Below, in pieces: positions 3-39,135 of a stretch of 41,653 bases of DNA (position 1 is its first letter; every line of letters begins with the position of its first letter). The position numbers and the translations under genes were made by a program. Source of the stretch: Promethearchaeota archaeon (GTDB lineage: Archaea; Asgardarchaeota; Lokiarchaeia; Sigyniarchaeales; SOKP01); assembly GCA_018238625.1 (NCBI GenBank), contig JABCSY010000028.1, positions 1 through 41,653 on the forward strand. The letters run 5' to 3'. Under the pieces are notes generated by a model. The model saw only the letters and a program-made list of their open reading frames with translations. It was not told the origin of the DNA and made no database searches.

Positions 3-1250
3 CAGAGCGATGTCCTAAGCGGATCAACCGTTGTATTACACGATATCAATAAGGACCACTTAGAAATCATTTTTGAGTTAATTGAAGCTGAAAATAAGAT
101 CCATAATAATAAATTCAAAGTTGAACGCACCACAAACCGTAAAAAAGCTTTGAAAGGAGCAAATTTCATTATTAGTTCTATCGAAGTTGGAGATCGTTTT
201 AAGTTGTGGAGAGAAGATTACGAAATCCCTAGAAAGTATGGGTCTACTCAGATATTAGGAGAATGTGGTGGCCCAGGAGGGACTATGCATGCTTTTAGGA
301 TTATTCCTCCAATAGTAGAAATTGTGAAAGATGTTGAGGAAATATGTCCCGATGCATTTTTCATTAACTTTTCAAATCCCATGGCTAGAGTATGCTTAGC
401 AATCAAAAGAACGGCTCCAAATCTTAAATTCGTAGGGCTTTGCCATCAAATCGGATTTCTTAATTATCACCTCCCTTTAATGATGAAAAAGAAATTGGAT
501 AATTTAAAGTTGAAACCATATGGATTAAATCATTTTGGGTTTTTAATGGGACTCGAGGAATTAGCTAACGGTAAAGATTTAATGCCAGAATTTAATAGTA
601 AAGCAATGGAGTACTTTAAACAACAAGAAGGGAGGTTTGAATTTTCTACCTTAACTTTTGAGGTTTATAAAAGATTTAGCTATTTTCCCTATGTAGGTGA
701 TAATCATCTCGGTGAATATTTACAATTCGGAGAAGAGTTTACTGAAACGCAAGATATGATCGATTGGATTGATATATGTGATAAACACGGTAAAAGGCGT
801 TATAGACGCGTTCTAAGAAACTACAAACGCCTTAAAGAAGGGAAGTATCTTAAAAAAGGAATGCTCTCTATGGGAGCTTCTGGAGAAAGAGCAATCCCTA
901 TTATTGAAGCAATAATTACCGATGCAAATACTTATGAGAGCGCTGTAAACATTCCAAATGATGGGATCGTTGAAAATTTACCTCAAGACCTCGTTGTCGA
1001 ATGTCCAGTTAAGGTGGATAAAGATGGCGTACATGGAGTCAAATGGGGGGTGTTGCCAAAAGACATTGCTGCAATACTTAGAATTGAAGCAACTATTCAA
1101 GATTTATGCGTTGAAGCCATTTTAAAGAAGTCAAAAGATATTGCAATAGCAAGCTTAGCTGTTGATCCAAACGTGGGAAGTTTTGAAATTGCGGAAAAAA
1201 TTTTTACCGAAATAAAATCTAACAGTAATTACTATGATTATTTTAGATAA
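3..1250 (+). CDS. Family 4 glycoside hydrolase (NAD+/Mn2+-dependent, alpha-galactosidase-like), 5'-truncated by window edge
   Basis: Frame is open from position 3 (..VVLHDINKDHL..TTNRKKALKGANFII). GH4 motifs GECGGPGG, NFSNP, GLCH, GLNHF and NIPNDG..NLP..VVECP are present. Confidence 0.9.
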   Translation, partial: QSDVLSGSTVVLHDINKDHLEIIFELIEAENKIHNNKFKVERTTNRKKALKGANFIISSIEVGDRFKLWREDYEIPRKYGSTQILGECGGPGGTMHAFRIIPPIVEIVKDVEEICPDAFFINFSNPMARVCLAIKRTAPNLKFVGLCHQIGFLNYHLPLMMKKKLDNLKLKPYGLNHFGFLMGLEELANGKDLMPEFNSKAMEYFKQQEGRFEFSTLTFEVYKRFSYFPYVGDNHLGEYLQFGEEFTETQDMIDWIDICDKHGKRRYRRVLRNYKRLKEGKYLKKGMLSMGASGERAIPIIEAIITDANTYESAVNIPNDGIVENLPQDLVVECPVKVDKDGVHGVKWGVLPKDIAAILRIEATIQDLCVEAILKKSKDIAIASLAVDPNVGSFEIAEKIFTEIKSNSNYYDYFR

Positions 1251-1535: not shown

Positions 1536-2477
1536 ATGGATTCTAATGTTGTAAAAAAATCTGAAATTAAATACGAAAAAGCTACAAATATTCTTTGGAA
1601 AGTGTGGTGGTTTTGTTGGTATTTACTAATTGTTCCTTCAGGTATTACGGCATTGGGTTACTTTATATTTCGATTTATAAGCAATGACTTTTACATTTCG
1701 TTAGGATTTTCTGTCCTCACATTTATTTTTTCGATACTATTTTTTTATAAATTTTATGATAAGTATCGAAATGATCCCGTATTCCTTAATCAAACAAACA
1801 ATCCTACCTCAAGGATTCATATTTTATTCTTAATAACTATCTTTTCCTTAATTGTAACCCCCATTTTCGTGCTTATTGATCCTTCAGATTACTTTTTTGA
1901 ATTATTACCTTTAATTTCTTTTTGCGTTCTCTATTTAATAGTTTTTTATTACTACTATTTCAAACCTATAGACTTCTTTAACACCTCTATAGGCGAATTT
2001 AAGCACTCAATTAACTTTTCTTTAGCATCCAAACAGCTTTACAACATTGTCGTAATCTTAAATTTTATTATTCATATTTTATTTCTCTCTTTCCTATTTA
2101 ATACAAAAGTTTCATGGTTATTCGCACTTATAACAAATTTTTCTTTTTACTTCATCACATTAGTATCTACTAAAAAAATACGCAAAATAATTAATGATTC
2201 AATCAAAGAGAATAAAATATTTTTGAAAGAATTGATTATATTTCATAAAAAATACTCAGTTTCAATTCTTAGCTTAATTTTCGTTCTGTTAATCCAAATA
2301 CCTTTTGATATTATTGGAGTTTATAGTATAAATTATGAGATACAACACACGCTTATTGAATTAATAAATGCTTTCTTTTTATCCATGATGTTCTTTCTAA
2401 TTTATTTGAAAATTAGAGTATATCTCGCTTTTTACTACAAAAAATTACTTATGAGGTTACCCAAGAATGAAATCTGA
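1536..2477 (+). CDS. Polytopic membrane protein of unknown function (about 8 TM helices)
   Basis: 313-aa ORF with paired hydrophobic segments; overlaps the next ORF by 11 nt. Confidence 0.8.
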   Translation: MDSNVVKKSEIKYEKATNILWKVWWFCWYLLIVPSGITALGYFIFRFISNDFYISLGFSVLTFIFSILFFYKFYDKYRNDPVFLNQTNNPTSRIHILFLITIFSLIVTPIFVLIDPSDYFFELLPLISFCVLYLIVFYYYYFKPIDFFNTSIGEFKHSINFSLASKQLYNIVVILNFIIHILFLSFLFNTKVSWLFALITNFSFYFITLVSTKKIRKIINDSIKENKIFLKELIIFHKKYSVSILSLIFVLLIQIPFDIIGVYSINYEIQHTLIELINAFFLSMMFFLIYLKIRVYLAFYYKKLLMRLPKNEI

Positions 2478-5400
2478 TAAAGTTGAGGATAGTCTGCCTG
2501 AAGCGTTCGGTAAATACCAGAAGTTAAATCTAATTTTGTCAATTTTAATTTTAGGGTTTCTTATTTTATTATCGTATTTGATAGAATTTCCGATACTTAT
2601 CCTATTCTCTCTACTATTTTTAATCGTCATCTCGTATTACGAGCAAAAAGCAAACTTTTGCCCAAAAAAATATAGCAAATACATTTTTTTAGTTAACTCT
2701 ACTGGGATTTTTGCGACAATTGTTTTTTGGTTTGTGCCTTTGCCATATAATATTAAATTTATAATATTGATTATAGGATTATACTTAATCTTAGAGATTT
2801 TTGCGACAAGAGGTTATTTCGTTAAAGAGAACATTTTAATTGCTCAACATGTTTTAGCTGTTTCTAGTTTTATTGTGATAATTTACTCTTTTTTCGATAT
2901 TTTTTCTTTTATTTACATTGATTTTACAACAGATCCTATTCTAATAATGTTTTCAAAATTTTTACTACATGCTTTAACGATTCTATCACTAACTTTAATC
3001 TCTTTTTATTACGTCTATGTGCGACACTTTCGAAAACATCCATGGGATAATTTTAATAGATGCATAATGATATTAGTTTTATTAATAGAATTAACATCAT
3101 ACATCGTAATTAATCTTAGAAATTATTTCTCGTTAGACTTACTATTATTTATTAACGGTTTGATTTTGTCATCAATCTTATTTCCAGGTATTTTTTTGAT
3201 ATTTACTTTCGTAAATTATTTGATTGGCGTTTTTTCATCAAGAACATCTCTTTCTTACAGTTACTACTCGTGTTGGGGATTAATGCTGACTATTGGTCTT
3301 TCGATTATGTTTACTTTTGCATTTGTTGTAAGTAATCTGACAATTGTAATTTCCATTCTATTGTTTTTCTCAATCTCTTCGTATTATCTATTGAAATTTG
3401 GGCAGAAAATCGAAAAAATAAGCGAAAGTTCAATAATTAAGTTTACTCGTATTAATTCTTATTTTATTTTTATTGAGCTATTTTTCCTACTATTTTCTGT
3501 ATTTTTTAAACTATTTTCATATTTTGTATTATATGATGCCATTATTATTTCAACATATGCGGCATTTATGGGAATAACCTTTCTAAATAACATAATTTTT
3601 AAGAAAAGATTAATCTCAGAATCGAACAGAGTTGTAATAAACGAGCTTTCTTTAATATTTACATCCGTTTTAATTTTTTATTATTCATTTATTTATTTTT
3701 TCGGTTCTTATCTCGTACTGGTTTTTCCTTTTTTAATTTCAAGTATTTCATTTTATTTACCTCTCAGATATATATTAACCAAAACAACCCATCAAACCTT
3801 TATAAAAAGCTTAATAAAACTGAACAGCATTGTATTATGTTCGTCATTGCTCCTTATTCCAACGGTATTTAGCTTGGAGTTGGTATCGATAGGATACGAT
3901 TTCAATACGTTTAATGTCGTTAATTTTACATTATTCATTTTTTATGGAATTTTAGTTTTTCTTTATAATTTTTCAAGACAACTCAATATTAGAGAAACAA
4001 GAAAAAAACTAATGGTTAAATTACAGATTATCGTTGGATTTATCGTTACAGGTACCACCATGTTCTACTATCCATATGTCTTGCTTATAGAAACTTCCTA
4101 TTCAATAATTTTTTCATTGCTCTCTGCTTCAAGTTTCTTATTTATTCCTCTTATCTTTTCTTATAAAAAAGAATGTTTTAATACCAAATTAGTTAAAAAG
4201 ATAATAATTCTGAATAGTATCCTATTTTGGATCATCATCATTTTTATACCTTCTATGATCGGGTTAGAAATAGTTAGATTAGGGATGATCGCTGATCCTA
4301 TCTTAATTACTTTATTTTCCGTAATATTATTTTTTGTTTCTTTAAAATTCTTTGATCAGATTTCGTCCTATATCGAATTAAAAGAAGGATTGATTAATGG
4401 TATTAAGATAATTCAACCAATTACTTGGTTATTCATTAGTATTCTAATTTCTTCAATCTTTTTCAATCTAAATTTAACCGTAACAATTACTTGGTTAAGA
4501 AATGTTATTTTTGCTGGCGCGCTTTTGTTATTTTTTATACTTAACACATACAATTTAGTTCTTTTAGAAGATTTAAAACAATCAGTCTTTGAAGACGAAA
4601 CAAGTAAGTTTGATTATTACAGGATTTACAAAATTTATGAATTTATTAAGAATATTATAATTTTCGGCGTAATAATTTCAGTATCTCTTATATTTTCATC
4701 AATCGTCCAAGTGTTTAATTATAACCAATTTTTTATTGATATGGATCTTCAATTATTAGGTTTTACCCTCGACATTGCCATATTTTTACTAATATTATTA
4801 CTCATCCTTAATGTAAGCGATAAACTGATAAAAATCGACTTCGAAAGAGTTAAAGTTACTTCTGAATTGATACTATGGATAATTCTAAAATCTATTATAT
4901 TGTTTACTTTAGCCTTGTATCCTATTCAATTGTCGTTATTCAGTAAAATAACACTATTAATTCTTGTCTTCGCCGTTTTAAGTCCAATTTCTCATTTTTA
5001 TTTAGAAAGAAGATTTTTACTCTTAGAAAATACTCAATCAGCGATAAGAAAAAGTATAGGGGGCTTGTTTTTCTTATCAATTATTTGTCTTTCCATTGAA
5101 ATTATTTGGAATATCTCTTCAATAATTTTAGCCCCACATTTAAATCAAGAGATGCTTAAAATTCTTGTTTTCGGGAAAATATTTCTATTTTCAAATTTTT
5201 ATCTTCTACGATATAAAGTTTTTACAGAAAGAGAATCAGGGTTTCATATATATAGCATATTTGGAATTTCGTTAGTATTACTGATTTCATACTTATTCCC
5301 TCTCTCATTAGTTTTCTTATTACCCTTTATGATATTATTATCAGAAAGAAACAGAACATCCTATTTTCGCTTGTTTTTCTATTTGATACTAAGTATTATA

Positions 5401-8400
5401 ACATTTATTGAAGCAACAGGGTTCTTGATTTCATATGAACTTCTACCTTCCCTTGAAGCATTATCGATTAGTACATCGTCTACTATATACTTAATATCTT
5501 TATTATCTGTATTTTTTACATCGATTATCTTGAATTTAGAAAGAGAAAATAACATTGAAAAATTCATACTTTATTTTTTAATATCTTTACTTTCGTTTAT
5601 TTTGTTATCACCCTATATATATCTAATATACAACACGACTACCTCATTATTCATTTTCTTGTGTTTAATGGGCGTCTTCTATTATAGGAAAGAGGAACCC
5701 CGATATAAATGGTTTATTAAACCATGTGTCCTTCTTATGATTTTTAATTTTATTAGTTTTCTATCTTTTTCATTCTTTTTTAATAATATTATATTTGCAT
5801 CCTATAATCCGATACTAAGTTTTACGCTAACTTTAAGCGTGTCTGGATTTGCGTTTGTATTTCTTTACAACGATTCGCCAAGATTGTTTCGAAAGAGATC
5901 ATTTTATATCGTTTTAGCTTTAAATATAATTTCATTTCCCGCATTTCTATATTTCTTCTTGATTTCAGTATACTCACTTCCGATTTTCGATCTAATTATA
6001 TTAATTATAAGTATTAATGTAGGAGTTGTTCTTTTTTATCTTTCAATAGCAATTTATCAATGGAAATTGTCTTGGGCTGTATGGAAAATTGGTTATAGAT
6101 CGTGGATAATCTTTCCTATTATAAATTACGCATTGATAAGCGAAGCATTTACAGGTATAGATGTATTCACAAACGCTTTAAATTTATTTGGTGTAAATTT
6201 ATATGGTTCAAATCTTTTAGCTTTTATTCTATGCGTTCTTCTATCCTTACCGTTCTGGTATACATGGATTAAGAAACATTTCACTAATGTTTTATTTATT
6301 TCATGGGGTTTATGTCTATTTTTAATCTATTGGTTTAGCCAAAATGCATTTTTTGGAAACCCAGATTTGAGCTATTTGTCATTTATTGGCATCTCAGTTA
6401 TAATACTTATGCCAATTCTAGTAAGGTTAAGATCGTGGAATATAGTATCTATCTTATGGATAATATTCTCAATAATCTTGTCAATTTTTCTATTTTCTCT
6501 ATTTGAAGCAGTAGGATTTCTAATTGAGATAAATTACCCAATAATTACAATAGTATGTGGCCTACTTTTTATTACTCTCTCGTTTTTCCCTAACTTAAAA
6601 GCTCAGAAGAATGTTATATTAATACTGGCCTACTCTATTGCATTAACAGGGATTTTCTTATTAATATTTCATCTTATGTTTTTGTTGACCTTGCATCCAT
6701 TTATTTCTACAAACATAGCGTTAATTATTATGTCCTTAAGCTTATTTTCGTCAAGACTTCTAAAATTAAAACACATTATCTTTAATCGTTTAATTTCTAC
6801 AATTTTAATAGTAAACTTCTCTTCACTAACTTACTTTACTTTTAACTTAATCCCCAATTTTGGATTGTTTTCATTATTTTTAGCGGTAACAGTCTTCGGT
6901 GGGTCGTACTTCGTATTTAACTACTATAAATTATTCTTTCCATCGAAAAAAATTATTCCACTAAGTATTCTTTCTTTTGGAATTTCATCTTCTGCGTCTT
7001 CAATTGTATTTTTGTTGTTACCCGATTCACTTTTTATGGTTGCCGCAGTATTTATTGCTATAAATTTAATTTTAATTAATTTTTCACTAGGGAATTATCG
7101 ATTTATAATGTGGTATTTAATCCCTATTCCCTTCACACTTTTTATATTACAGTTTTTATTTTATATTGAACTTTTTCAACCTCTTTTACTGTTTACTTTA
7201 GCAGGATTAATGTTATACACTCTTATCTTCCAAATCTTTATAAATCTCTTCAATAACGATATTGAACTTTCAATCGAATCAAAATCCTATAATATTATGA
7301 AATTTTTTGAGGATAAAAATCAAATTAAAGTTCTAAATCTAATATGTTTTTTATTAAATTCAGCTTACTTTTCAATTTTTCTCGCGTTTCTTAGCCCATT
7401 TAACATATTCTACCAAATTCTCGAAGTTTTAATATTGTGGTCTATTTTAACATTACTCAGTGTACGATACGCCGAGTCTTCGAAAATAGAAATTGATATC
7501 GAAAAATTTACTATATATTTGAAGAAATTTAGTTCAGTAGTAGCATTTCTATTATATCTTGAAATCTCTTTTTTTGTTTTTGGAATAGCTCTTGATTATT
7601 TAGGGTTGGGGTTGATTGAGAATGTTTTATTATCATTAAGCTGTTTATTTATCCTCACATTTTTCGATTTCTATTTTATAAAGAAGGTTAGTAAAAGGAT
7701 AATCTATCCAATTCATATTTTTGCGTATATTTTAATGTCTATCCTTTTATTTATTTTATTAAACCAATTCTTAATGATTGGTTTAGAAAGTCTCTTTTTG
7801 AACCTTGTAATTCTGTTAATTATGCAATTTTATACTGAATACGCCATCTTTACGTATTTAAATCAATTAGGTCGATATGACGCAAGTAAATTAAACGAAT
7901 CCATGATTCAGATTAGAAATGTCCTAATAAATATGATTATATTTACTATAGGCTTCTACACATCTTCCTTAATGACTTCTTTTCTAATAAGTTCAAATGA
8001 GATTTTTATAGGATTTCCAGCGTTATTTTTCTTTTTAATGATTCTTTCTGTTATTATGTTTGCTATAAACCTTTTAATGAAGTTTAAGTTCAGAAATTTT
8101 ATTATATGGGGGTTCTTTTTAATGTTTCAAGTTTGCTTTACAGCTTTCTACAGTTTATCAGTTTTACTCTTTACGGATTTCAATATATTTAATTCTATGC
8201 TTTTAATTTTAATTAATACGCTCTTCGCTTTTTATTCTGTTTTCTCAATCAAAAGAATTTTAAAAGAAAAAGCGAATGCTAAAACCATTCAAAATTATTA
8301 TTCTATTCTAATGGTATTATCGTACTTAGAAACATCCATTTTATTTTACGGATTGTTTAATCTTTTGTTTGGAGTAATTGAAAGTTTCTTAGCGTCACAA

Positions 8401-10083
8401 ATCGTCTTATTTTTTATTAGCATAGTAGAGATTAATGTTGTAAAAAGAATTAAAAGTAAGTACATGTTTTTAGTTCATACAATTTGCTATTTCAACATTT
8501 CATGGTCTGTATTATCGCTAATATTATTTTTATCCCCCTCAAATTTGGCTTTACAAAGTTTTGCCATCTTGGTTTTTGCTTTAATGCAATTCTATACAAA
8601 TTATTCTTATTACAACACTATGCGTAAATTTAACTTGGATAATGAAGAATCGTTATTAAAGTGGAAAACACATCGAAAATGTTTCATAGGGGGGGTAATT
8701 TATATAGTATTATCCAATTACATTTTTCAGACTCTATATTTAGCCAACATTGAGCTTCAATTAATTTTATTTTTATTAAGCATATTAATTCACATCTTAA
8801 TGATTTTTGATAGGTTTGTCCTTAAATTTCTTGGTAAATATTCAGTCTTTTTAATGACAGCTTCGTGGGTATTTATTTTTGGATTTTCAATTAATTATTT
8901 TTTGGGTTGGATTCCTCAATACTCAATTTCTATCGTTCCGATTATTATTATTATCCTCTTATTAGAGTTAGTTTATGGTTATGGGTTAAACCTATTCGAT
9001 TTTTGGGGTTTAATTAAAGAAAACAAATTAAAACTTAGAAACTTTCTTATAATTGTTTCGTATATCAATTTCTGCTCTTGGCCACTGTATTATTTAACAT
9101 TAGATATATTAAATATTACCACGATGATTTTAATCGTATTTGGAATTTTACTACTTTTAATGTTACTTGATAATGATAACAATTTTAATTCTATTAATCA
9201 AAAAACTAGAAAACAGGTTAGTCATTTCAGCCTGATCGGTTTTGGCGTATTCTCCTCATTTGATGTGTATTTTGCATTAGCTATAATGGATCCAACAAAA
9301 CTTTTATTAAATATTTCAACTTCCCTATTAGTTTTTATGGTATTTGTAGGCTTCTTAGTCAAACCCTTTAAAAAACGGAGACTCCTCTCTTTTGCTTATT
9401 GGGGGTTAATGGTAACTTTAATATTTTTAATTTTTTACGCCTTTTACTCATCTGGTTGGAGCTGGTCACTTTTAATTCTAGGTATTTTATTATACCCATT
9501 TATTTTCATGTTAGAGGAGTTAAAAGAATTCTTCGATAAAATAGTTGAAAATTTGAGCGCTTTATATCAAATTATTAAGAACGCCTTTAATTCTTTAGTT
9601 CAGGAAGTAATTAAATTCTTGAGGGTTAATTTTAAAGTTATCCGCATTATTTTGTGTATAATATTAGGATTAGTTATGGGAATTCTTTTTTCAGATTTAG
9701 TATGGCATTATTTAAACCCATTCCATTCAATTTTATTAGCTTTAGCAATTTTTGGGATATCTTATGGAACTATTCCAGGAGTGAAATCTACGGATATTGA
9801 CGAGATTTTTAGAGAAAAAATGAAGAGATTTATTACAATATGGATAAGCATAACGGCTTTTATTTCGGCTATTATATTACCCTATATAGTATCTATTGTT
9901 CTTATATTTTTCCTTGTAATATTATCAATTTTAGGGCTTGGAGCTATTCTATTAATATTTATATACCGATTAGAAGAAGCAGAGAGAGTTTCGATAAAAT
10001 GGAGGTTTTACACCTTAATATTTTTCTTTATTTTACTTGGTATTGAAATTTTATTAGGAGCAGCTTTATATCTTGGCGGTTAA
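2467..10083 (+). CDS. Giant (2538 aa) multi-pass membrane protein with internal ~125-130-aa repeats
   Basis: 7.6-kb uninterrupted ORF, hydrophobic throughout. Repeated motifs: K.(L/I)I.LNSI..IP..LE..G and YLE.S..G..IE..L.S..MQFYT.Y. Confidence 0.85.
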   Translation: MKSDKVEDSLPEAFGKYQKLNLILSILILGFLILLSYLIEFPILILFSLLFLIVISYYEQKANFCPKKYSKYIFLVNSTGIFATIVFWFVPLPYNIKFIILIIGLYLILEIFATRGYFVKENILIAQHVLAVSSFIVIIYSFFDIFSFIYIDFTTDPILIMFSKFLLHALTILSLTLISFYYVYVRHFRKHPWDNFNRCIMILVLLIELTSYIVINLRNYFSLDLLLFINGLILSSILFPGIFLIFTFVNYLIGVFSSRTSLSYSYYSCWGLMLTIGLSIMFTFAFVVSNLTIVISILLFFSISSYYLLKFGQKIEKISESSIIKFTRINSYFIFIELFFLLFSVFFKLFSYFVLYDAIIISTYAAFMGITFLNNIIFKKRLISESNRVVINELSLIFTSVLIFYYSFIYFFGSYLVLVFPFLISSISFYLPLRYILTKTTHQTFIKSLIKLNSIVLCSSLLLIPTVFSLELVSIGYDFNTFNVVNFTLFIFYGILVFLYNFSRQLNIRETRKKLMVKLQIIVGFIVTGTTMFYYPYVLLIETSYSIIFSLLSASSFLFIPLIFSYKKECFNTKLVKKIIILNSILFWIIIIFIPSMIGLEIVRLGMIADPILITLFSVILFFVSLKFFDQISSYIELKEGLINGIKIIQPITWLFISILISSIFFNLNLTVTITWLRNVIFAGALLLFFILNTYNLVLLEDLKQSVFEDETSKFDYYRIYKIYEFIKNIIIFGVIISVSLIFSSIVQVFNYNQFFIDMDLQLLGFTLDIAIFLLILLLILNVSDKLIKIDFERVKVTSELILWIILKSIILFTLALYPIQLSLFSKITLLILVFAVLSPISHFYLERRFLLLENTQSAIRKSIGGLFFLSIICLSIEIIWNISSIILAPHLNQEMLKILVFGKIFLFSNFYLLRYKVFTERESGFHIYSIFGISLVLLISYLFPLSLVFLLPFMILLSERNRTSYFRLFFYLILSIITFIEATGFLISYELLPSLEALSISTSSTIYLISLLSVFFTSIILNLERENNIEKFILYFLISLLSFILLSPYIYLIYNTTTSLFIFLCLMGVFYYRKEEPRYKWFIKPCVLLMIFNFISFLSFSFFFNNIIFASYNPILSFTLTLSVSGFAFVFLYNDSPRLFRKRSFYIVLALNIISFPAFLYFFLISVYSLPIFDLIILIISINVGVVLFYLSIAIYQWKLSWAVWKIGYRSWIIFPIINYALISEAFTGIDVFTNALNLFGVNLYGSNLLAFILCVLLSLPFWYTWIKKHFTNVLFISWGLCLFLIYWFSQNAFFGNPDLSYLSFIGISVIILMPILVRLRSWNIVSILWIIFSIILSIFLFSLFEAVGFLIEINYPIITIVCGLLFITLSFFPNLKAQKNVILILAYSIALTGIFLLIFHLMFLLTLHPFISTNIALIIMSLSLFSSRLLKLKHIIFNRLISTILIVNFSSLTYFTFNLIPNFGLFSLFLAVTVFGGSYFVFNYYKLFFPSKKIIPLSILSFGISSSASSIVFLLLPDSLFMVAAVFIAINLILINFSLGNYRFIMWYLIPIPFTLFILQFLFYIELFQPLLLFTLAGLMLYTLIFQIFINLFNNDIELSIESKSYNIMKFFEDKNQIKVLNLICFLLNSAYFSIFLAFLSPFNIFYQILEVLILWSILTLLSVRYAESSKIEIDIEKFTIYLKKFSSVVAFLLYLEISFFVFGIALDYLGLGLIENVLLSLSCLFILTFFDFYFIKKVSKRIIYPIHIFAYILMSILLFILLNQFLMIGLESLFLNLVILLIMQFYTEYAIFTYLNQLGRYDASKLNESMIQIRNVLINMIIFTIGFYTSSLMTSFLISSNEIFIGFPALFFFLMILSVIMFAINLLMKFKFRNFIIWGFFLMFQVCFTAFYSLSVLLFTDFNIFNSMLLILINTLFAFYSVFSIKRILKEKANAKTIQNYYSILMVLSYLETSILFYGLFNLLFGVIESFLASQIVLFFISIVEINVVKRIKSKYMFLVHTICYFNISWSVLSLILFLSPSNLALQSFAILVFALMQFYTNYSYYNTMRKFNLDNEESLLKWKTHRKCFIGGVIYIVLSNYIFQTLYLANIELQLILFLLSILIHILMIFDRFVLKFLGKYSVFLMTASWVFIFGFSINYFLGWIPQYSISIVPIIIIILLLELVYGYGLNLFDFWGLIKENKLKLRNFLIIVSYINFCSWPLYYLTLDILNITTMILIVFGILLLLMLLDNDNNFNSINQKTRKQVSHFSLIGFGVFSSFDVYFALAIMDPTKLLLNISTSLLVFMVFVGFLVKPFKKRRLLSFAYWGLMVTLIFLIFYAFYSSGWSWSLLILGILLYPFIFMLEELKEFFDKIVENLSALYQIIKNAFNSLVQEVIKFLRVNFKVIRIILCIILGLVMGILFSDLVWHYLNPFHSILLALAIFGISYGTIPGVKSTDIDEIFREKMKRFITIWISITAFISAIILPYIVSIVLIFFLVILSILGLGAILLIFIYRLEEAERVSIKWRFYTLIFFFILLGIEILLGAALYLGG

Positions 10084-10591: not shown

Positions 10592-10796
10592 AATTTAATT
10601 TTAACATTAAACAATAATAAAGCAATACTGAGTGCTAATTTACTAAAAAGTTAATCTTAAAATGGCAATAGAAAGCGTGTACTATAATCTAATAATTAAA
10701 AAATTCAAGCAAAAAAGTACAAAAATCTCGACTATTAAAGTTTATAAATTTTAAGATTAATACAATTAAATATCAATAAATATTTTAGTGAAAATA

Positions 10797-11342
10797 ATGG
10801 AAGAAGAAAGAGAAAATAAAACCTTAAATGTTAAAGATTGGATTATTCTTAGTACAACCATGATTGCTGCTGTTTTAACAATTCTAGCTTTAGTATGGCA
10901 AGTGCCACCTTCAAGTGGTATAGTTTCTGCAACATTCTTGTTAATGCTTTCATTTATATTTTTTGTAAATTCGGTATCATCTAACTCAAAAGCGAATTAC
11001 GAAACAAGAGCAGGGAATATGCCAGAAGAACAGATTAATAGGTTTGTGATGTTTGCGGAATATTCGTTCGGTTTCGGATTTACTTTGGTTATTACAGCAT
11101 TTTCTATACTTGGTTATAAATACTTATTAGGTTTCGTAGGACGAGAATTATACGTCTTATTCTTGCCAATAGTTTTCCTATTAACCACATGGGTAATAAT
11201 ATTCATCTATAATTGCATAAATTATTCGGGAAAAGCATTGAAAGGCCTAAGAAGTTTAAAGCGCAATCTTTGGACAATATTAGAGATAGGATGTCTAGTA
11301 TTGATCATATTTGACTTTTTCGAAATAATTTTAATTCCCTAA
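10797..11342 (+). CDS. Small integral membrane protein (about 5 TM)
   Basis: Hydrophobic ORF (ATG 10797; track start GTG 10788). TATA-like TTTATAAA near 10741 and a T-tract after the stop. Confidence 0.8.
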   Translation: MEEERENKTLNVKDWIILSTTMIAAVLTILALVWQVPPSSGIVSATFLLMLSFIFFVNSVSSNSKANYETRAGNMPEEQINRFVMFAEYSFGFGFTLVITAFSILGYKYLLGFVGRELYVLFLPIVFLLTTWVIIFIYNCINYSGKALKGLRSLKRNLWTILEIGCLVLIIFDFFEIILIP

Positions 11343-11574: not shown

Positions 11575-11811
11575 GTGAAAAAACCACGATGTGAAAAATG
11601 CGGACGGGAAGTTCACCCCGCCAAATCTGCTATACAAAGTTTTGATACTATTTTCTCAAAGATTCCTTCGTATTGTCCTAACTGTGGAGCGGAACTTTCA
11701 GATACAAAGCAAAAACAAGTGGATAATTATACAGATTATCTTTCTATTCTTAAATGTATTCCCATAATAGGGTTCATCATTCTTATTATAATTCTAATAA
11801 TGATATATTAA
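11575..11811 (+). CDS. Zinc-ribbon protein with a C-terminal membrane anchor
   Basis: CEKC...CPNC pairs; terminal hydrophobic helix IPIIGFIILIIILIMIY; GTG start. Confidence 0.7.
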   Translation: MKKPRCEKCGREVHPAKSAIQSFDTIFSKIPSYCPNCGAELSDTKQKQVDNYTDYLSILKCIPIIGFIILIIILIMIY

Positions 11812-12295: not shown

Positions 12296-14704
12296 TCATT
12301 CGATATAGCATGATAAATCCTTCTGATTGGATTTCCTCATGATATCCGATTTTAATAATTCTTCGAGTTCAGGGAATTTAAAAGGAAAAATATTCTCAAA
12401 AGCTCTTTTTAGTAATTCTATATACTTTTTTTTGTCGTACTGATGTTTTTTTTCGTCGTAAAGATCTGAAAGAATCACCTTCTTTTCGGGAAAAGCTGGG
12501 TCGGCATCAGCATTGAGTATAATATAGCGAACATTTTTACCGGGAGTCACTACCACACCTGATCTTTCTAGTTGTCTCGCAGCAACAGCCTGGTACGAGT
12601 TTACTTTGTACTGTGAAGGTTTTCTGGAAACCCTTTGGCGAATCGTAAGTTCTTCTCGCAAAACTTCACCCATCTCTATCTTGTCCACATATCGATAGAG
12701 CATCTTCTTTACTTTTGGGATTCTTCTCATAAATTCTTCGACGGTTTTTGCGCCTTGAAATACATCGATAAACGCGTACTGAGCGTCTTTAACGATTTTT
12801 GGCGCGTCTCTGCGCCGAACTTCAATTCCTCTTACTTTTATCTCTCCATCGCTTTTAATCCCCCAATAGTGACTTAGCGCCGGAATGTCTGGTTCTGCAC
12901 GAGAAGGAAGAAAAACGATAAAATTGTACTTTCCGTCCCAGCTCATTGGAATACCCACTTGTTCAGTTATTTCTTCAGCAATTTTTTTAGTTTCTGCTTC
13001 GAACTCCTCGGGAGATCTACTTTTTGTATCTTTGAGCCAAATTGAATCCACAATTCCGTGAATAACTTTGCAACCATGTTCTTCTGCTATCTCCGCAGAG
13101 CGCATAAGGAATTCACGAGCAAAAGCGCAAACCGTTTGATGAGCTTCGATCTTTCCGAAGCGAGCATTTTTAAACCCTAAATATCCGAAGCTTACTACGA
13201 GTACCCATTTTAGAGCAATATCGGTGAATTTGTAACGAAGGTTCCCAGTTTTACGGACATACGCTTTGTACTTTAATCTTTTTGATAAAGGCAGGCTTAT
13301 TGATTTCGATATGATTCCTTGTCTTTTTGAACAGATATGAAAGTCCAATCCTGGAACTTTTACACCCGTACCGTCGTCTTTACAACACTTACAATTAATG
13401 GTTTCCGAAGAAATATTAAAGTTTGCCATTAAAGAAGGATACATAGAAGAAAAGTCTAGTTCTACCACTTGTTCAAAAACGCCAATGATGGGTTCGAATA
13501 TATGGCCTCCACGGTCGCTTCTAATTAGGTCCATTCCAGTGTTGAATCCTTCCGGATTTTTCTTGAATGGAGGTATTAAATGGTCAAGCTTATAAGCGTT
13601 ATAAAATTGAATCGACTGGAGCGCCCCCCCGATTGTTATGCGACTTAATCTTTGGAGCGAAATTCGCGATATACGGGCGACTTCAATAACGCCTGGAATA
13701 TTTCCTTCCGTGAAATGGAGACTGGCGTATGTTGTTGTGTCCAAATGAAATCTGCCAGATAAATAGACTTGAGTCTTTGAACGCCGTCTTATTATACCAT
13801 ACGACATATAATGATCTGAGCCACCAGAAAGCTCGAAAAGACAGTTCACCAATGGTTTTTTATCCCGAGAAAGGTAAAGATCTTTTGTTACTCGATTCTC
13901 TGAAGCCCTAGCAACTAGATACGGGAGGAGAAATTCGTCCCCATTTTGGGTAAGTATTATATCAGGATCGAGACGTTCGATTACTTTGCTTATGGTCTTC
14001 AAGGTTTCCGCTTCGTTTGCTTTAGCGATCAATATTTTTCGTTTTATGTATCCATCTGCTCGTGGAACATTGCCCTCGTCGTTTTCAACAATATTGATTT
14101 CAGCATGAGAAATGGGATCGTTATAATATGGTCTTATCCCTTGGTGCTGAATTTTTACATCTAACCAAACAGCTTTTAGTGGAGGCAAATCGTAGAATAA
14201 CTTTTCGTTGTCATCTTGTAAATCTAGAGAAACAAGGCGTAAAATATTACTTCTCTTGTCTTTGCCCTTTTCAATTTTAACTTTGAAACGACAGAAAGAC
14301 ATAGGGAATATGTCATTGACATAAAAATACATCTGAGTAATAGGAAGATCCGTATTATGCAAGATAAAAAGTCCTATTCTGTCAATCTCTTTAATTGTTT
14401 TCTTAAATACCGAGGGTTTCGTTACAGTGACGCCAAGAACTTTCGATTTTTCGTGATCTTCGAGTTTTGCATATTTTTCACAGATTCGCACCTCTTTTAC
14501 ATTTAGATTTTGAGTAAGGATATATTTCAATCGCTTTAAGTCGTTACCGACTTCATTTCTGGGCACGGCAAAAAATTCAGGACAGAATTCTTGGTATACT
14601 TTTATTACCTTCTGCTCTTTTGAGGTTTTTACCCAAAGGATAACCCCTTCGCTAAAAGTAGATACATCTAAAAGCCAACCGTCAAAAACATTCTGTGAGT
14701 CCAA
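12296..14704 (-). CDS. polB2: Archaeal family B DNA polymerase, PolB2 group
   Basis: Motif A LDFSSMYPS, motif B KWVLVVSFGYLG and motif C HGIVDS (PolB2-type replacement of YGDTDS). KVRGIEVRRRD, a CKCC..HIC cluster and eroded exonuclease motifs. TTG start 3 nt after the upstream stop. Confidence 0.92.
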   Translation of the reverse strand: MDSQNVFDGWLLDVSTFSEGVILWVKTSKEQKVIKVYQEFCPEFFAVPRNEVGNDLKRLKYILTQNLNVKEVRICEKYAKLEDHEKSKVLGVTVTKPSVFKKTIKEIDRIGLFILHNTDLPITQMYFYVNDIFPMSFCRFKVKIEKGKDKRSNILRLVSLDLQDDNEKLFYDLPPLKAVWLDVKIQHQGIRPYYNDPISHAEINIVENDEGNVPRADGYIKRKILIAKANEAETLKTISKVIERLDPDIILTQNGDEFLLPYLVARASENRVTKDLYLSRDKKPLVNCLFELSGGSDHYMSYGIIRRRSKTQVYLSGRFHLDTTTYASLHFTEGNIPGVIEVARISRISLQRLSRITIGGALQSIQFYNAYKLDHLIPPFKKNPEGFNTGMDLIRSDRGGHIFEPIIGVFEQVVELDFSSMYPSLMANFNISSETINCKCCKDDGTGVKVPGLDFHICSKRQGIISKSISLPLSKRLKYKAYVRKTGNLRYKFTDIALKWVLVVSFGYLGFKNARFGKIEAHQTVCAFAREFLMRSAEIAEEHGCKVIHGIVDSIWLKDTKSRSPEEFEAETKKIAEEITEQVGIPMSWDGKYNFIVFLPSRAEPDIPALSHYWGIKSDGEIKVRGIEVRRRDAPKIVKDAQYAFIDVFQGAKTVEEFMRRIPKVKKMLYRYVDKIEMGEVLREELTIRQRVSRKPSQYKVNSYQAVAARQLERSGVVVTPGKNVRYIILNADADPAFPEKKVILSDLYDEKKHQYDKKKYIELLKRAFENIFPFKFPELEELLKSDIMRKSNQKDLSCYIE

Positions 14705-14707
14705 CTT

Positions 14708-14983
14708 CTACTCTTTTCCCTTAATTATTTTCTCTATTTCGATAATCTTTTTTTCCAACAACCCAATTTTCTTTTCTTGCTCAATCGCAAACGACATGAA
14801 AAGAATTTCTGAAAGCATAGGGCGAGCACTTAAACTGCCAGCATCAGCATGAATTCTCGCAAAGTTCATTAATTTATCAAATATTTTTTGATCTTCTGGC
14901 CTAAGCGCTCTTTTATAGTCCTTCCAGCTTTCGATCTCGTGTTCAAGCGCAGGACGAAAGCTTGGCACTGTTCTACCACACAT
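14708..14983 (-). CDS. Small helical PolB2-associated protein (arCOG07300-like)
   Basis: GRTVPSFR..W..YKRALRPED..F..L...AR.H..A signature; immediately upstream of polB2, as in the conserved archaeal neighbourhood. Confidence 0.8.
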   Translation of the reverse strand: MCGRTVPSFRPALEHEIESWKDYKRALRPEDQKIFDKLMNFARIHADAGSLSARPMLSEILFMSFAIEQEKKIGLLEKKIIEIEKIIKGKE

Positions 14984-17443: not shown

Positions 17444-18223
17444 TTAAAACCAACAATCTAAAGTCATGTTTTTCGTAGTATTTGCCAAATTTCTTTTAGG
17501 AATGCGCGGTTTCCACTTTAAAAGGCGGTTTTCTGGCAAAAAAGGATGCTGGACTAAAACATATTCTGTATATCGCTCGTCTTCGTTTATCAATGCTAAT
17601 ACACTTCCGAAGTGGGAGAGAATTTTGCCGCCATTAGGTCTATAGAGAGAATATTCGTTTAGGGGAGCAGTTAGGACGATGAGCGGTCTTGTTTTAGAGA
17701 GAATCGTTTTAATCCCGTTAATAGCTCTCAGTAAATCCTCAAACATCTGCTTTTCGTAACTCTGAAACAATGTAGTAATACCAGAAATTAAAACAACTTT
17801 GACGTGTTCAAGCTTAGAGAGCCTATTTTCTAAAAGCTCTACCATTTGATCCCAAGTAAACGCGCGGGCGATAAGAATATTCCCTAAAACTTTCTGAGGC
17901 GATAAATTTTGGGAAACTGCAAACTTGCTTACGTTATATGGGTTAAAGCGGTTATTTGCGTCAATGAAAGCAACTTTTATTTCTTCTCCTAAACCTCCAT
18001 TATTAAAAGATTTTTGAGCGATAACCGCGGTGGTCAATAGAATATTCGCAAGTTTTTTTTTATCGCCATAAAGTAGATAAACTAAGTTTTTACGAAAACC
18101 ACCGCCTCCCAATAACTCGTCTAGCGTTGAATCCCCGCTCGAAACTAAAGGAATTCTCTTGTTTTTTCTATAAAAATTAAACCCCGAATTAAACGACATT
18201 ACATAAACTGATGAATCCATCAA
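17444..18223 (-). CDS. Inactivated RadA/RadB-like RecA-fold protein of the PolB2 module
   Basis: SSG..LDELLGGG, FIDANNRFNPY and NILIARAFTWDQM motifs. Walker A is degenerate (YGDKKKLAN) and Walker B lacks Asp (VVLISGI). Confidence 0.85.
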   Translation of the reverse strand: MMDSSVYVMSFNSGFNFYRKNKRIPLVSSGDSTLDELLGGGGFRKNLVYLLYGDKKKLANILLTTAVIAQKSFNNGGLGEEIKVAFIDANNRFNPYNVSKFAVSQNLSPQKVLGNILIARAFTWDQMVELLENRLSKLEHVKVVLISGITTLFQSYEKQMFEDLLRAINGIKTILSKTRPLIVLTAPLNEYSLYRPNGGKILSHFGSVLALINEDERYTEYVLVQHPFLPENRLLKWKPRIPKRNLANTTKNMTLDCWF

Positions 18224-18579: not shown

Positions 18580-20292
18580 ATGACAAGCCCATATACAGAT
18601 CGTTTTTGGCGTAAAAATTGGGACGAGGGATTAGCGGACTTGGATCCTATCCTATGGGAAACTTCTTTCATAGATGCGGTAAGGAATATTTTTGAGAATT
18701 TTCCGGACAAAATGGCTTTATCTTTTCAAGGTTTAGAAATTACCTTCGGTCAAATAGATAAATCTTCTAACCAATTTGCTCACATGTTAATTGATCAAGG
18801 ATTTAAGAAAGGAGATGTCGTAGGAATTAATCTTCCAAATACTCCGGAGTATGTTATAGCATTTCTTGGGACTTTAAAGGCTGGTTGTATTGTTTCTGGC
18901 GTAAGTCCACTCATGTCAGATGTTCAAATGCATTATCAAATAAATGATTTAGGAGCAGGCAAAAAAAATGTTGCTTTAGTTACTCTCGACGCGATTTTTG
19001 AACATCGATTGAAAAACATAACATCAAAATTACCACAATTAAAGCTTGTAATAACTACTAGCGTAATAGGGTCATTTCCAAAGGAACAACAAGCTAAAAT
19101 TAGGGCTGTTAAAGAGATTCCTTTTGGAAAAGTAACTCCCTTAGAAGGAAAAACTGTTCTCGATTTTCACGATGATATTTTAGCTAAATACCCAACTAAA
19201 CTACCTACAGTTGATGTAACTCCAGATGATATTGCATTTATTCAATACACTGGAGGAACCACAGGACCTCCAAAAGGTGCAATGCTAACTCATAGAAGCG
19301 CAGTTTCAGACCTTATAATTGTTCGAACATGGCTCGGTTGGGAACAGGGGGCAAGGATTGCGCTTTCAGGGTTCCCTTTTTTCCATATAGCGGGTCTATT
19401 TTTCTGCAACTCCTGTCTATTTCTTGGTTGGGGTCAAGTCCTTATAGCGGATCCCAGAGATACCTTAACAATTTGCAATGAAATGAAAAAATATAATCCT
19501 ACGGCACTGGTAAATGTTCCATCATTATTTCAAATTCTTATAAACACCAAAAAATTTAAGAGATTAGATCATTCTAATTTAGATGTTTGTATTTCTGCTG
19601 CGGCCCCATTTCCAGTTGAATCTCAACAAAAATTAGAAGGTATCGTTGGAGCGGGTAAACTATTGGAAGCTTATGGAATGACTGAATGTTCTCCACTCTC
19701 AACAATGAATCCTTACAAAGGAAAACGAAAGTTAGGCTCTATAGGCCTACCTTTATTAAACGTTGAATTAAAACTTGTTGACCCCGAAAGTGGTGAAGAA
19801 GTTCCATTAGGAGAACCAGGGGAGATTTGCGTAAGAGGTCCTATGGTTATGAAAGGTTATTATAACAAACCTGAGGAAACTAAGAACGCAATTGACTCTG
19901 ATGGATTTATGCATACTGGAGATGTAGCAATAATGAGTGAGGACGGATATTTGAGAATTGTAGATCGAACTAAGGATATGATAATTGTCGGCGGTTTCAA
20001 AGTATTTTCTTCTAAAGTAGAGGAAACATTGATTAAACACCCTGCAATTGGAATGGTTGCCCTAATCGGAATACCAAATCCTGATAGACCCGGCTCAGAA
20101 ATTGTTAAGGCAATTCTGCAACTAGATCCTAATTACGAGTATGATGGAAACGAAGAAGCATTGAAAGAGGATATTACAGCTTTTGCTAAAGAACATTGTG
20201 CTCCATATGAAGTCCCCAAAAGACTTGAAATAGCTAAAGAATTACCACTCACAGTAGTAGGTAAAATTGATAAGAAAGCTTTAAGGAAATAA
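18580..20292 (+). CDS. fadD: Long-chain acyl-CoA synthetase (FadD-like), paralog 1
   Basis: YTGGTTGPPKG, FPFFHIAG, YGMTE, GEICVRGP, HTGD, DRTKDMI and LPLTVVGKIDKK motifs. Confidence 0.92.
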   Translation: MTSPYTDRFWRKNWDEGLADLDPILWETSFIDAVRNIFENFPDKMALSFQGLEITFGQIDKSSNQFAHMLIDQGFKKGDVVGINLPNTPEYVIAFLGTLKAGCIVSGVSPLMSDVQMHYQINDLGAGKKNVALVTLDAIFEHRLKNITSKLPQLKLVITTSVIGSFPKEQQAKIRAVKEIPFGKVTPLEGKTVLDFHDDILAKYPTKLPTVDVTPDDIAFIQYTGGTTGPPKGAMLTHRSAVSDLIIVRTWLGWEQGARIALSGFPFFHIAGLFFCNSCLFLGWGQVLIADPRDTLTICNEMKKYNPTALVNVPSLFQILINTKKFKRLDHSNLDVCISAAAPFPVESQQKLEGIVGAGKLLEAYGMTECSPLSTMNPYKGKRKLGSIGLPLLNVELKLVDPESGEEVPLGEPGEICVRGPMVMKGYYNKPEETKNAIDSDGFMHTGDVAIMSEDGYLRIVDRTKDMIIVGGFKVFSSKVEETLIKHPAIGMVALIGIPNPDRPGSEIVKAILQLDPNYEYDGNEEALKEDITAFAKEHCAPYEVPKRLEIAKELPLTVVGKIDKKALRK

Positions 20293-20439
20293 TAAAATCT
20301 ATTTTTTTTCTTATTTTTATTCATCATCAGTTACGACTTTATAAACTACTTATTTTATAATAAAAAGAGTTCTAAGAAGAGAAGAGAACGAATTTGTAAG
20401 AAATTAATAAAATTGCGAAATGAAATATCTAAAAAATTA

Positions 20440-20462
20440 AACTTTATAATAAAATGAATCAA
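20440..20462 (+). promoter_or_regulatory. Promoter block of fadD paralog 2
   Basis: AACTTTATAATAAAATGAATCAA aligns without gaps to the other two. Confidence 0.65.
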
Positions 20463-20534
20463 ATATAATTATAATTATAATAATTTTTTCGAAATATAAA
20501 AATCAAATAATATGAAATAGATGAAAAGAAAAAT

Positions 20535-22241
20535 ATGTCGTATAAAGATAAATTCTGGAAAAAATCCTGGGATGATTATGTAAAAGATTTAGATCCAAAT
20601 GAATTTAATACAACTTATCCCGAAGCAATTCGAAGAACTATGGAAAAGTTTCCAGAGAAGATGGCTTTTGATTATTTAGGAATAACTTTAACCTATAGAG
20701 ATTTAGACGAGACTTCAAACCAATTCGCCAATATGTTAATTGAAAACGGTTTTAAAAAAGGCGATGTAGTCGGTATAAATTTACCAAATACACCTGAATA
20801 TTTAGTGGGCGTCATTGGTACTTTGAAGGTAGGTTGTATTGTTTCGGGTGTTTCACCTCTTCTTTCAGACATTCAAATGCAATATCAATTGAATGATTTA
20901 GGTACAGGAGGGAATAAAGTAGCATTATTAACTTTAGATGCTATATTTGCTGGTAGATTAGTTAAAATAGTTTCAAAATTACCACAATTAAAATTAGTAA
21001 TAACTACTAGCGTAGGAGGCTACCTGCCGAAAATAAAACAAGTATTGGGTAAATTAATTGGTAAGATTCCTAAGGGAAAAGTTACTCCCTTAGAAGGAAT
21101 AACAGTAATTGATTTCCATAAAGATCTCTTGCCTACTTATTCAAAAGAATTACCAACAGTAAAAATAGCCGCTGATGATTTAGCATTTATTCAATATACG
21201 GGTGGAACTACAGGACCACCAAAAGGAGCAATGTTAACCCATAAGAATATCGTTTCTGACATAGTTATATACCAGAAATGGCTTAATTGGGAACCAGGGG
21301 AAGGCGTAGCTCTTTCAGGGTTTCCATTTTTCCATATCGCAGGAACTTTTACTACCCTTAATGTAGTCTACCTGGGTTGGAGTCAGATTTTGATACCAAA
21401 CCCACGTGATTCAGATCACATTATAAAAGAATTGGCTAAATACAAACCAACGGTTTTAGCAAATGTGCCTTCTTTATATCAGATTTTGATGAAAAACCCA
21501 AAATTTAAAGAGTTGGACCATTCGCAATTAAAGTATTGCGTTTCTGCGGCAGCACCGTTTCCAAAAGAATCTCAAAAAGAATTCGAAACAATAGTAGGGA
21601 AAGGTAAATTAATAGAAGCTTATGGGATGACTGAAACATCTCCACTCTCAGCAAGTAATCCATCCAATGGAGTTAAAAAATTAGGAAGCATAGGTCTTCC
21701 TCTAAACAATACGGAAATAAAATTAGTTGATCCAAACACAGGGAAGGAAGTACCTGTAGGAGAGCCTGGAGAGATTTGCGTAAAAGGACCAATGGTAATG
21801 CAAGGATATTTCAATAAACCTGAGGAAACTAAGAACGCAATTGACTCTGATGGATTTATGCATACTGGAGATGTAGGCGTAATGGATGAAGATGGGTATA
21901 TGAAAATCGTTGATAGAACTAAAGATATGATAATTGTCGGCGGTTTCAAAGTGTTTTCAGCCAAATTAGAAGACACCCTAACTAAACATCTTGCTATAGG
22001 AATGGTTGCCACTGTAGGAGTAGATAACCCTGAAAGACCAGGTTCTGAAATCGTTAAAGCGTTTATACAATTAGATCCTGAATATGACTACGACGGAAAT
22101 GAGGACGCTTTAAAGAAAAATATTACAGCATTTGCCAAAGAAAACTGTTCACCTTACGAAGTTCCTAAAATAATTGAAATTGTAAAAGAACTACCACTCA
22201 CGACAGTTGGTAAAGTCGATAAGAAATCACTTCGAAAATAA
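20535..22241 (+). CDS. fadD: Long-chain acyl-CoA synthetase (FadD-like), paralog 2
   Basis: Same adenylate-forming motifs; colinear with paralog 1. Confidence 0.92.
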   Translation: MSYKDKFWKKSWDDYVKDLDPNEFNTTYPEAIRRTMEKFPEKMAFDYLGITLTYRDLDETSNQFANMLIENGFKKGDVVGINLPNTPEYLVGVIGTLKVGCIVSGVSPLLSDIQMQYQLNDLGTGGNKVALLTLDAIFAGRLVKIVSKLPQLKLVITTSVGGYLPKIKQVLGKLIGKIPKGKVTPLEGITVIDFHKDLLPTYSKELPTVKIAADDLAFIQYTGGTTGPPKGAMLTHKNIVSDIVIYQKWLNWEPGEGVALSGFPFFHIAGTFTTLNVVYLGWSQILIPNPRDSDHIIKELAKYKPTVLANVPSLYQILMKNPKFKELDHSQLKYCVSAAAPFPKESQKEFETIVGKGKLIEAYGMTETSPLSASNPSNGVKKLGSIGLPLNNTEIKLVDPNTGKEVPVGEPGEICVKGPMVMQGYFNKPEETKNAIDSDGFMHTGDVGVMDEDGYMKIVDRTKDMIIVGGFKVFSAKLEDTLTKHLAIGMVATVGVDNPERPGSEIVKAFIQLDPEYDYDGNEDALKKNITAFAKENCSPYEVPKIIEIVKELPLTTVGKVDKKSLRK

Positions 22242-22317
22242 TATTTAATATTTTTATTTTTATTTTTTTTCTATAATACATTTTTAAAAGGAATCTCAAT
22301 AAGATTTAGAAAGTTAA

Positions 22318-22340
22318 AACTTTATATTTAAAAGAATCAA
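22318..22340 (+). promoter_or_regulatory. Promoter block of fadD paralog 3
   Basis: AACTTTATATTTAAAAGAATCAA; 79 nt upstream of the ATG, as in paralog 1. Confidence 0.65.
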
Positions 22341-22396
22341 TACTATTTAGTAACAATTTTTTAATGAAAAAAAGTAATAATTTGAGTGAAATTAAA

Positions 22397-37063: not shown

Positions 37064-38053
37064 ATGAGCTGTACCTTGATCGAAGAAATTTGGGTTGAAA
37101 AATACAGACCTCAGACATTTAACGAAATTGTAAGCCAAAATATCGCTATTAATAACTTAAAAGATTTCGTAAAAAGCGGTAACATGCCCCATATGATTTT
37201 TACGGGTCCTGCGGGCACAGGTAAAACAAGTACAGCGTTGATTATTGCTAAAAATGTGATTAAAAAACAGAATTATTTTGCAAATGTTTTAGAGTTGAAT
37301 GCATCTGACACCGTAAGAATGGACTATGTTAGAAACGCAATCAAAGGCTTCGTAAATCAAAATCTAGTTGTTGGGGATGATGCGTTAAAAGTTGTAATTC
37401 TTGACGAAGCGGACAATATACCTAAACAAGTTCAGCAGGCACTCAGGAGAATTATAGAAAAAACATCAAGTAACGTGAAATTTATATTGATATGTAATTA
37501 TATCAATAGAATAATCGATCCAATTATTTCAAGGTGTGCAGTATTTAGGTTTGCTAAATTACCTGAGGAGAAAATAATAGAGCGATTAAAGTTTATTTCA
37601 AAACAAGAAAAATTACAAATTCCCCAAATTCAAGCAAATGAATTTTACGAAGCGTTATTTTTTGTCTCAGGAGGAGATTTAAGAAAAGCTATTAATACTT
37701 TACAAATGTCCGTTGCGCTTGAGTTGTTAGACAATTTAGATTTAAACGAAGTTTTAAAGATTTCCGGTTTTTTGGATGGTTCAACGTTAGAAAAGTTAAT
37801 TAAAACGCTTCAATCTAAAAATTTTGAGGGAGCGAGAAAAATTTTTATTACAATTGAAAATTTAGACAGTAGAAATTTCCTAAGACAAATAATGGAAAGG
37901 TTAGGTAATCTAAATATAGAATCTAGCAATTATAACAAAATAATTTCTTTTATTGGAGAGATAGATTATAGAATTAGCCAAGGGGCAGATGCCAAAATTC
38001 AAATACTTGCTTTGATTGGTGAATTGATAAGAAATATCAAAATAGACACATAA
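37064..38053 (+). CDS. rfcS: Replication factor C small subunit
   Basis: WVEKYRP, GPAGTGKTS, LELNASD, ILDEAD, QQALRR, SRC and GGDLRKAIN motifs. Confidence 0.95.
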   Translation: MSCTLIEEIWVEKYRPQTFNEIVSQNIAINNLKDFVKSGNMPHMIFTGPAGTGKTSTALIIAKNVIKKQNYFANVLELNASDTVRMDYVRNAIKGFVNQNLVVGDDALKVVILDEADNIPKQVQQALRRIIEKTSSNVKFILICNYINRIIDPIISRCAVFRFAKLPEEKIIERLKFISKQEKLQIPQIQANEFYEALFFVSGGDLRKAINTLQMSVALELLDNLDLNEVLKISGFLDGSTLEKLIKTLQSKNFEGARKIFITIENLDSRNFLRQIMERLGNLNIESSNYNKIISFIGEIDYRISQGADAKIQILALIGELIRNIKIDT

Positions 38054-38079
38054 TTTTTATAATAAGGGAGGAAAAGGGC

Positions 38080-39126: not shown

Positions 39127-39135
39127 GTGAATTAT

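Follow-up and report, generated by a model that had tools for sequence, protein, structure and literature searches.

What kind of protein is built almost entirely from membrane helices, over thousands of residues, and what could it do in the membrane of an Asgard archaeon? The question is raised by a locus on contig JABCSY010000028.1 of a Promethearchaeota archaeon (genome 4.29 Mb, 98% complete), where a 2538-residue open reading frame (ORF) follows a 313-residue one; the window is the whole 41,653-nucleotide stretch analysed, and positions are window coordinates. The two genes are two pieces of one conserved protein with ~89 predicted membrane helices. The family and its architecture are undescribed in the literature searched, and its function is putative. 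The best explanation, to which we give a probability of about 0.45, is an in-membrane structural scaffold of ~45 helical hairpins in which a tryptophan-rich hub lies between two extensible arms. The features of the locus, with the evidence for each, are as follows.

1536..2477, + strand: 313-residue gene for the N-terminal module, separated from the rest of the chain; 8 predicted helices, N- and C-terminus inside (topology model, fused homologues)
2467..10083, + strand: 2538-residue gene, 81 predicted helices, N-terminus inside and C-terminus outside, ~40 hairpins (ORF, topology model)
3436..4536, + strand: repeat zone of the N-terminal arm (N-arm), residues 324-690, period 129-130 residues = 4 helices, 2 clear units (profiles)
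5704..6786, + strand: tryptophan-rich hub, residues 1080-1440, tightest at 1171-1330 (conservation, substitution ratios, AlphaFold2)
7351..8820, + strand: repeat zone of the C-terminal arm (C-arm), residues ~1629-2118, period 256 residues = 8 helices, 2 copies (profiles)
9511..9654, + strand: long amphipathic helix, inside face, residues ~2349-2396 (hydrophobic moment, model, topology)
9646..10083, + strand: terminal 5-helix module with no soluble tail (topology, profile matches)

One protein from two genes

Both ORFs are intact and overlap by 11 nucleotides, as the first-pass annotation had read, and the larger is single copy in its own genome. That annotation took the 313-residue gene for a separate membrane partner, a view that gives way once relatives are compared. 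The small protein matches the first ~310 residues of 2,700-3,300-residue ORFs, and the module is present in 69 of 108 long homologues; in 35 more the chain starts right after it, as judged from protein starts and not in every case from DNA, and four are unclear. At the DNA level, 27 distinct junctions comprised 14 fused in frame and 13 split. Splits take several forms: the 11-nucleotide overlap here, an 8-nucleotide overlap (G262), GTGA (G187) and an in-frame stop (G191, whose congener G192 is fused). In a midpoint-rooted FastTree phylogeny of 119 hub sequences, excluding seven unclear rows and duplicates, the deep rows are single-ORF and the fused/split label needs six changes, five of them forced by well-supported branches; eight distant loci were scored as fused from a single ORF with a look-alike start, the module profile having missed them. 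Because the junction types differ and the tree requires these changes, the chain has been cut more than once at one inside loop, after helix 8. At the loci seen, the split pieces remain adjacent. This recurrent split offers a natural point at which to divide the protein for expression and structural studies.

The ratio of nonsynonymous to synonymous substitution (dN/dS), calculated against two close orthologues, is 0.33-0.34 for the large gene overall, 0.18-0.21 at residues 1171-1440 and 0.39-0.41 in the C-terminal part; the 313-residue gene gave 0.18 and 0.32. An overall value of 0.33 points to purifying selection on the family. It also bears on whether the locus is an artefact, with AT-rich, T-rich composition producing a long open frame or an assembly error producing the split. 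The G+C content across the giant gene is 26-27%, and single splits such as those in G191 and G032 could be sequencing errors, but the selection ratio, an identical junction in five distinct close relatives, a Shine-Dalgarno-like AGGAGG ahead of the second start in another clade and orthologues at many other loci, including the GC-rich-looking G039, leave this explanation with hardly any credence.

Individual homologues carry further interruptions and insertions. In G038 a single in-frame TGA (L033:11420-11426) splits the orthologue into 2068 + 803 residues within the C-arm, and may be a second split site, read-through or an error. A zinc ribbon is inserted in a loop of the N-terminal module of P0121 (residues 167-190), and P0138 and P0141 have long acidic low-complexity insertions in loops.

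The family's distribution was surveyed with a hub profile against the 379 genomes of the phylum that are at least 70% complete. The profile matched 113 of these Asgard genomes, all in the host's class. Within the host's order it matched 97 of 128 genomes in the host family and, in two further families, 12 of 14 and 2 of 3; another order contributed 1 of 3 in a single family, and the remaining families had zero matches. A wider profile added just two weak, short matches and gave no convincing match outside the class among Asgard genomes. The member from the other order (G178; 2,615 residues with 89 predicted helices) clusters with proteins that bear the label Ca. Helarchaeota, and together these extend the family to a second order. 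Named close homologues of the host's proteins carry the labels Promethearchaeota or Lokiarchaeota, which marks the host as a Loki-type archaeon. Among 1.84 billion representative sequences, 48 proteins were found, all at E ≤ 1e-10 and with no tail of weak matches. Orthologues are recorded as 'hypothetical protein' under Promethearchaeota, Ca. Sigynarchaeum springense (MDO8086144.1) and Ca. Helarchaeota (NVM52301.1); they share the hub, the topology and similar end modules, mostly in one fused chain of ~2,550-4,920 residues with other unit numbers. There is one copy per genome except in G055, which has two full genes, and in a few split assemblies. The G055 genome is a single contig, and its paralogues have 4,920 and 3,151 residues (L093, L077). 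In single-contig genomes, single-ORF members of 3,950, 4,297 and 4,920 residues have 119, 129 and 143 predicted helices, the last being the longer G055 protein.

Topology was predicted with a home-made two-sided inside/helix/outside model using author-set emission values, and by hydropathy. Hydropathy gave 71-79 segments in the large protein, depending on the threshold, and 8 in the small one; the model placed 81 and 8 helices, together the 89 of the fused G029 protein, and 85-143 across 21 relatives. Outside loops have a median of 5 residues and a maximum of 18, so the description of the protein as almost wholly transmembrane with no large soluble domain holds. In the giant protein, the model assigns 154 lysines and arginines to inside loops versus 4 to outside loops, and shuffling the loop order cut the topology score by 76-96 log units in all 8 controls.

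Near the C-terminus, all 15 top hydrophobic-moment windows fall at residues ~2349-2396, in agreement with the long amphipathic helix first noticed before the last membrane bundle; this segment is helical in the AlphaFold2 model and lies within the longest inside loop. The profile of the terminal module that follows has matches of 23-57 bits in five of seven distant members of the same order. The loop preceding the last helix is short, basic, conserved and inside. A Piezo-like pore end finds no support here: there is no extracellular domain, and the last predicted helix ends two residues before the end of the chain.

Repeat arms and the conserved hub

The entire chain had been described as a series of ~4-helix repeats, which proved right for two zones and not for the stretch between them. 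The motifs that suggested it are all where they had been placed: INS, LNS and LNS at nucleotides 3451, 3820 and 4210 (residues 329, 452 and 582, spaced 123 and 130 apart) and YLE blocks at 7555 and 8323 (residues 1697 and 1953, 256 apart); a fourth LNS lies at residue 1630. Profiles of 120-residue windows were built from 15 near-collinear orthologues and searched against both the protein and a reversed copy of it. Significant off-diagonal matches appeared at offset 129 within residues ~370-690 (up to 48 bits, E 7e-17) and at offset 256 within residues ~1630-2120 (up to 39.5 bits, E 3e-14), versus at most 6.4 bits with the reversed protein; the unit holding the first INS (residues 324-435) matched at 6.2 bits, the level of that control. 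Profile-profile comparison of 495 window pairs recovered the same two zones, together with weak C-terminal links at offsets ~136, ~247 and ~500 (probability 51-66%, without a control). Neither method gave a significant repeat at residues ~700-1600.

The number of units varies between orthologues. Among the 46 of 108 long proteins listed, the N-arm has one unit in P0048, two in the 2538-residue protein, four in P0042 and P0115 and six in P0014, spaced 122-135 residues apart, and the C-arm ranges from one unit (P0121) through two to three (P0014, 256 apart) and four (P0064, 250 apart). Since the C-arm period is ~122 residues in G039 and P0128, the 256-residue period corresponds to a pair of 4-helix units. 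N-arm lengths cluster at ~1360, 1480, 1620 and 1730 residues among the 110 rows, out of 129, for which both ends could be placed, and the longer G055 paralogue carries a recent array with a period of 299 residues (up to 186 bits). This change of copy number, as read from orthologous sequences, argues that the 4-helix unit of ~122-134 residues is a real module.

No repeat was detected in the hub, which AlphaFold2 modelled with a local confidence (pLDDT) of 85.8 and a predicted template modelling score (pTM) of 0.68. Over the C-arm repeat zone, the AlphaFold2 block had a pLDDT of mostly 76-93. Across 25 diverse members its invariant columns are F, W, P and N only, with no D, E, H, K or R. This composition bears on whether the protein could be a membrane enzyme acting on lipid-linked substrates, of the GT-C or Wzy type, with long accessory arms. 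Such enzymes carry conserved, charged catalytic residues in a large outside loop; here the outside loops are short and the invariant columns hold no charged residue. The tryptophan-rich conserved hub would fit an enzyme, as would an 'O-antigen polymerase' label on two partial records (P0038 and P0158) and a family-4 glycosidase gene upstream in many genomes of the family; P0038, however, contains zero Pfam or NCBIfam families, and the glycosidase neighbour is missing from distant members. On balance we regard an enzyme as highly improbable.

Known families and possible function

No match to the family turned up in Pfam, NCBIfam or PDB sequences, and no characterised family aligned over its full length. 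For the window proteins of the giant family no Pfam family was reached at E ≤ 1. Scans of two sets of homologues (14 and 7) and of 23 C-terminal pieces gave no Pfam family of Piezo type, and three profiles (A1, A2 and A3) retrieved no Piezo chain among PDB sequences. A description of the family was absent from the literature searched, in which subscription papers were thinly covered and supplements were not included.

DUF2339 (PF10101) bacterial membrane proteins likewise have many helices and little soluble sequence. Membership was rejected, there being no PF10101 match in any Pfam scan; an Atlas cluster with PF10101 on 46% of its members scored 0.75, the chance level. Alpha-solenoids are reported as enriched in Asgard proteomes, in a paper whose main text has zero uses of 'transmembrane' or 'piezo' (bioRxiv 10.64898/2026.10.28.762692). 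Unlike soluble alpha-solenoids such as TPR and 14-3-3 hairpin stacks, the giant family lies wholly in the membrane; solenoid overlays on the protein stop short of several units, and a TPR profile gave no match. Giant Omnitrophota proteins are likewise very long prokaryotic chains with many transmembrane regions, but those described in the cited text carry SecA DEAD, peptidase and adhesion domains and are mostly extracellular (bioRxiv 10.1101/2023.11.21.568195), whereas the Asgard family has no soluble domain.

The closest architectural parallel is Piezo, whose blade is described as nine 4-helix units with a 90-A beam and whose PIEZO1 and PIEZO2 chains, with 38 helices each, are called in that account the most-pass membrane protein found so far (PMC9256749). 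Both are huge polytopic chains with tandem 4-helix units (here in two zones only), and in both a long helix on the inside precedes the terminal helices. The differences are considerable. Here there are 89 helices (85-143 in the family), the repeat zones flank a central conserved hub and vary in unit number, the C-terminus is outside with neither the extracellular cap that Piezo has between its last two helices nor a C-terminal inside domain, and the ~45-residue amphipathic helix precedes the last five helices and does not run under a blade as the beam does. Membership of the Piezo family is ruled out by the lack of sequence homology and of a cap or inside C-terminal domain. A convergent mechanosensor is a separate matter: the 4-helix-unit arms would serve as blades and the amphipathic helix would work as a lever, and several copies would join their last helices into a tension-gated pore. 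In favour of such a sensor, the units are real and the amphipathic helix immediately precedes a conserved terminal module. Yet, besides the missing homology and domains, the middle of the protein is its most conserved part by dN/dS, the reverse of what a terminal pore predicts, and Asgard genomes covered in the cited text already have MscS and in one case MscL (PMC7997004). We consider a sensor of this kind distinctly unlikely.

The scaffold we favour draws on computed properties: a real gene, a hairpin chain, a one-sided build, a fixed hub and ends, arms extensible by whole 4- or 8-helix units, and an autonomous first module. Two translationally coupled genes (8 + 81 helices) would yield one protein working in the single cell membrane, with the N-terminal module folding alone and rejoining the rest after separate synthesis. 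The hairpins may line up against one another to form two long arms in the plane of the membrane which, by our own estimate from ordinary helix packing, would extend for tens of nanometres. Basic inner loops and the C-terminal amphipathic helix would grip the inner leaflet, and the one-sided build could stiffen or bend a membrane patch and perhaps gather other membrane proteins. Specific contacts would then be carried by the hub and end modules, and arm length would set size alone. A membrane-shaping role, as proposed at the outset, stays the best inference.

Several observations weigh against this scaffold. The helix count rests on hydropathy and the home-made model and not on DeepTMHMM. The C-arm repeat retains polar residues within its helices (E1955, S1957, Q2041 and H2109) that could line a conduction path. 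The 854-residue C-terminal AlphaFold2 model reached a pTM of 0.46 for its global shape, so the arms might instead curve shut as a ring or pore. Some genera mostly have no match (g27, 1 of 9; g23, 0 of 2), including genomes 96-99% complete, and dynamic protrusions are described in Hodarchaea too in the cited text (PMC13716822). Given these absences, the Hodarchaea protrusions and the lack of matches outside the class, Asgard cells do not in general need the protein for their shape.

If the arms did curve until the end modules met, the protein might instead be a large conduit or intramembrane chaperone, with a lipid- or water-filled lumen that helps to insert, fold or pass large substrates, for example lipids or giant surface proteins. 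The conserved end modules and hub beside varying arms would suit this, as would the polar residues within repeat helices and the N-terminal module, which is adjacent to the main gene after each split seen and so must re-associate. However, the two arms are unmatched in length, differing up to twofold, which would alter the lumen size; no ATPase, SecY-like or ABC (ATP-binding cassette) partner is a conserved neighbour; and no transporter family matched apart from MFS_1, hit by 2 of the 23 C-terminal pieces at a best E of 1e-4. A conduit is unlikely in our judgement. A further, doubtful proposal is that this class-wide family forms a membrane-embedded solenoid skeleton. Its two hairpin arms, tuned in length by four-helix units, would set the stiffness or curvature of a membrane free of a surface layer, and tension would pass by way of the hub and the amphipathic helix to a gate or partner. 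If true, no larger class of polytopic membrane protein would be on record, and the principle of the Piezo blade would have been invented independently. Beyond the scaffold, conduit, sensor, enzyme and artefact readings, the remaining probability falls to explanations we have not foreseen.

The family has 89 helices in this genome and a predicted maximum of 143, in a 4,920-residue frame, versus 38 for Piezo. It makes one ask by what means a prokaryote could insert and fold over 100 helices, why the number of units can vary freely and what shapes a Loki-type membrane. As a scaffold or sensor it would be a membrane-shaping device added in a lineage close to the origin of eukaryotes. No member turned up in the other Asgard classes searched, so the family is probably not ancestral to a eukaryotic protein.

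Neighbouring genes

Directly upstream in many genomes of the family lies the family-4 glycosidase gene, often after an aminotransferase-like gene. The copy in the window (150-1250, + strand; PF02056, PF11975) probably begins before it. Locus comparison found no neighbour gene constant across the order. Downstream, a 184-residue membrane protein without a Pfam match (10788-11342, + strand) comes after the giant gene in many genomes of the host's genus, as it does in G189. In genus g28 (L084, L085, L087, L091 and L092) a putative branched-chain amino-acid-type ABC cluster lies downstream on the same strand. Below the ORF cut-off, a short frame that contains a CxxC motif and ends in a hydrophobic stretch was seen by eye (~11590-11810, + strand).

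Elsewhere in the window, an 802-residue family-B DNA polymerase-like gene, a 91-residue gene and a RadA-like gene (12296-14983 and 17444-18223, - strand) form a set that we take to resemble the archaeal PolB2 cassette. Three similar tandem acyl-CoA ligase-like genes (570, 568 and 581 residues) are followed by sirtuin-like and small GTPase-like genes (18580-24109, + strand). A 999-residue UPF0182-family membrane protein (PF03699, E 1e-15) is encoded at 26589-29588 (- strand), and a 1622-residue highly charged protein with evident internal repeats and strong purine skew at 30189-35057 (+ strand). Three consecutive clamp-loader (RFC)-like genes occupy 37064-40497 (+ strand).

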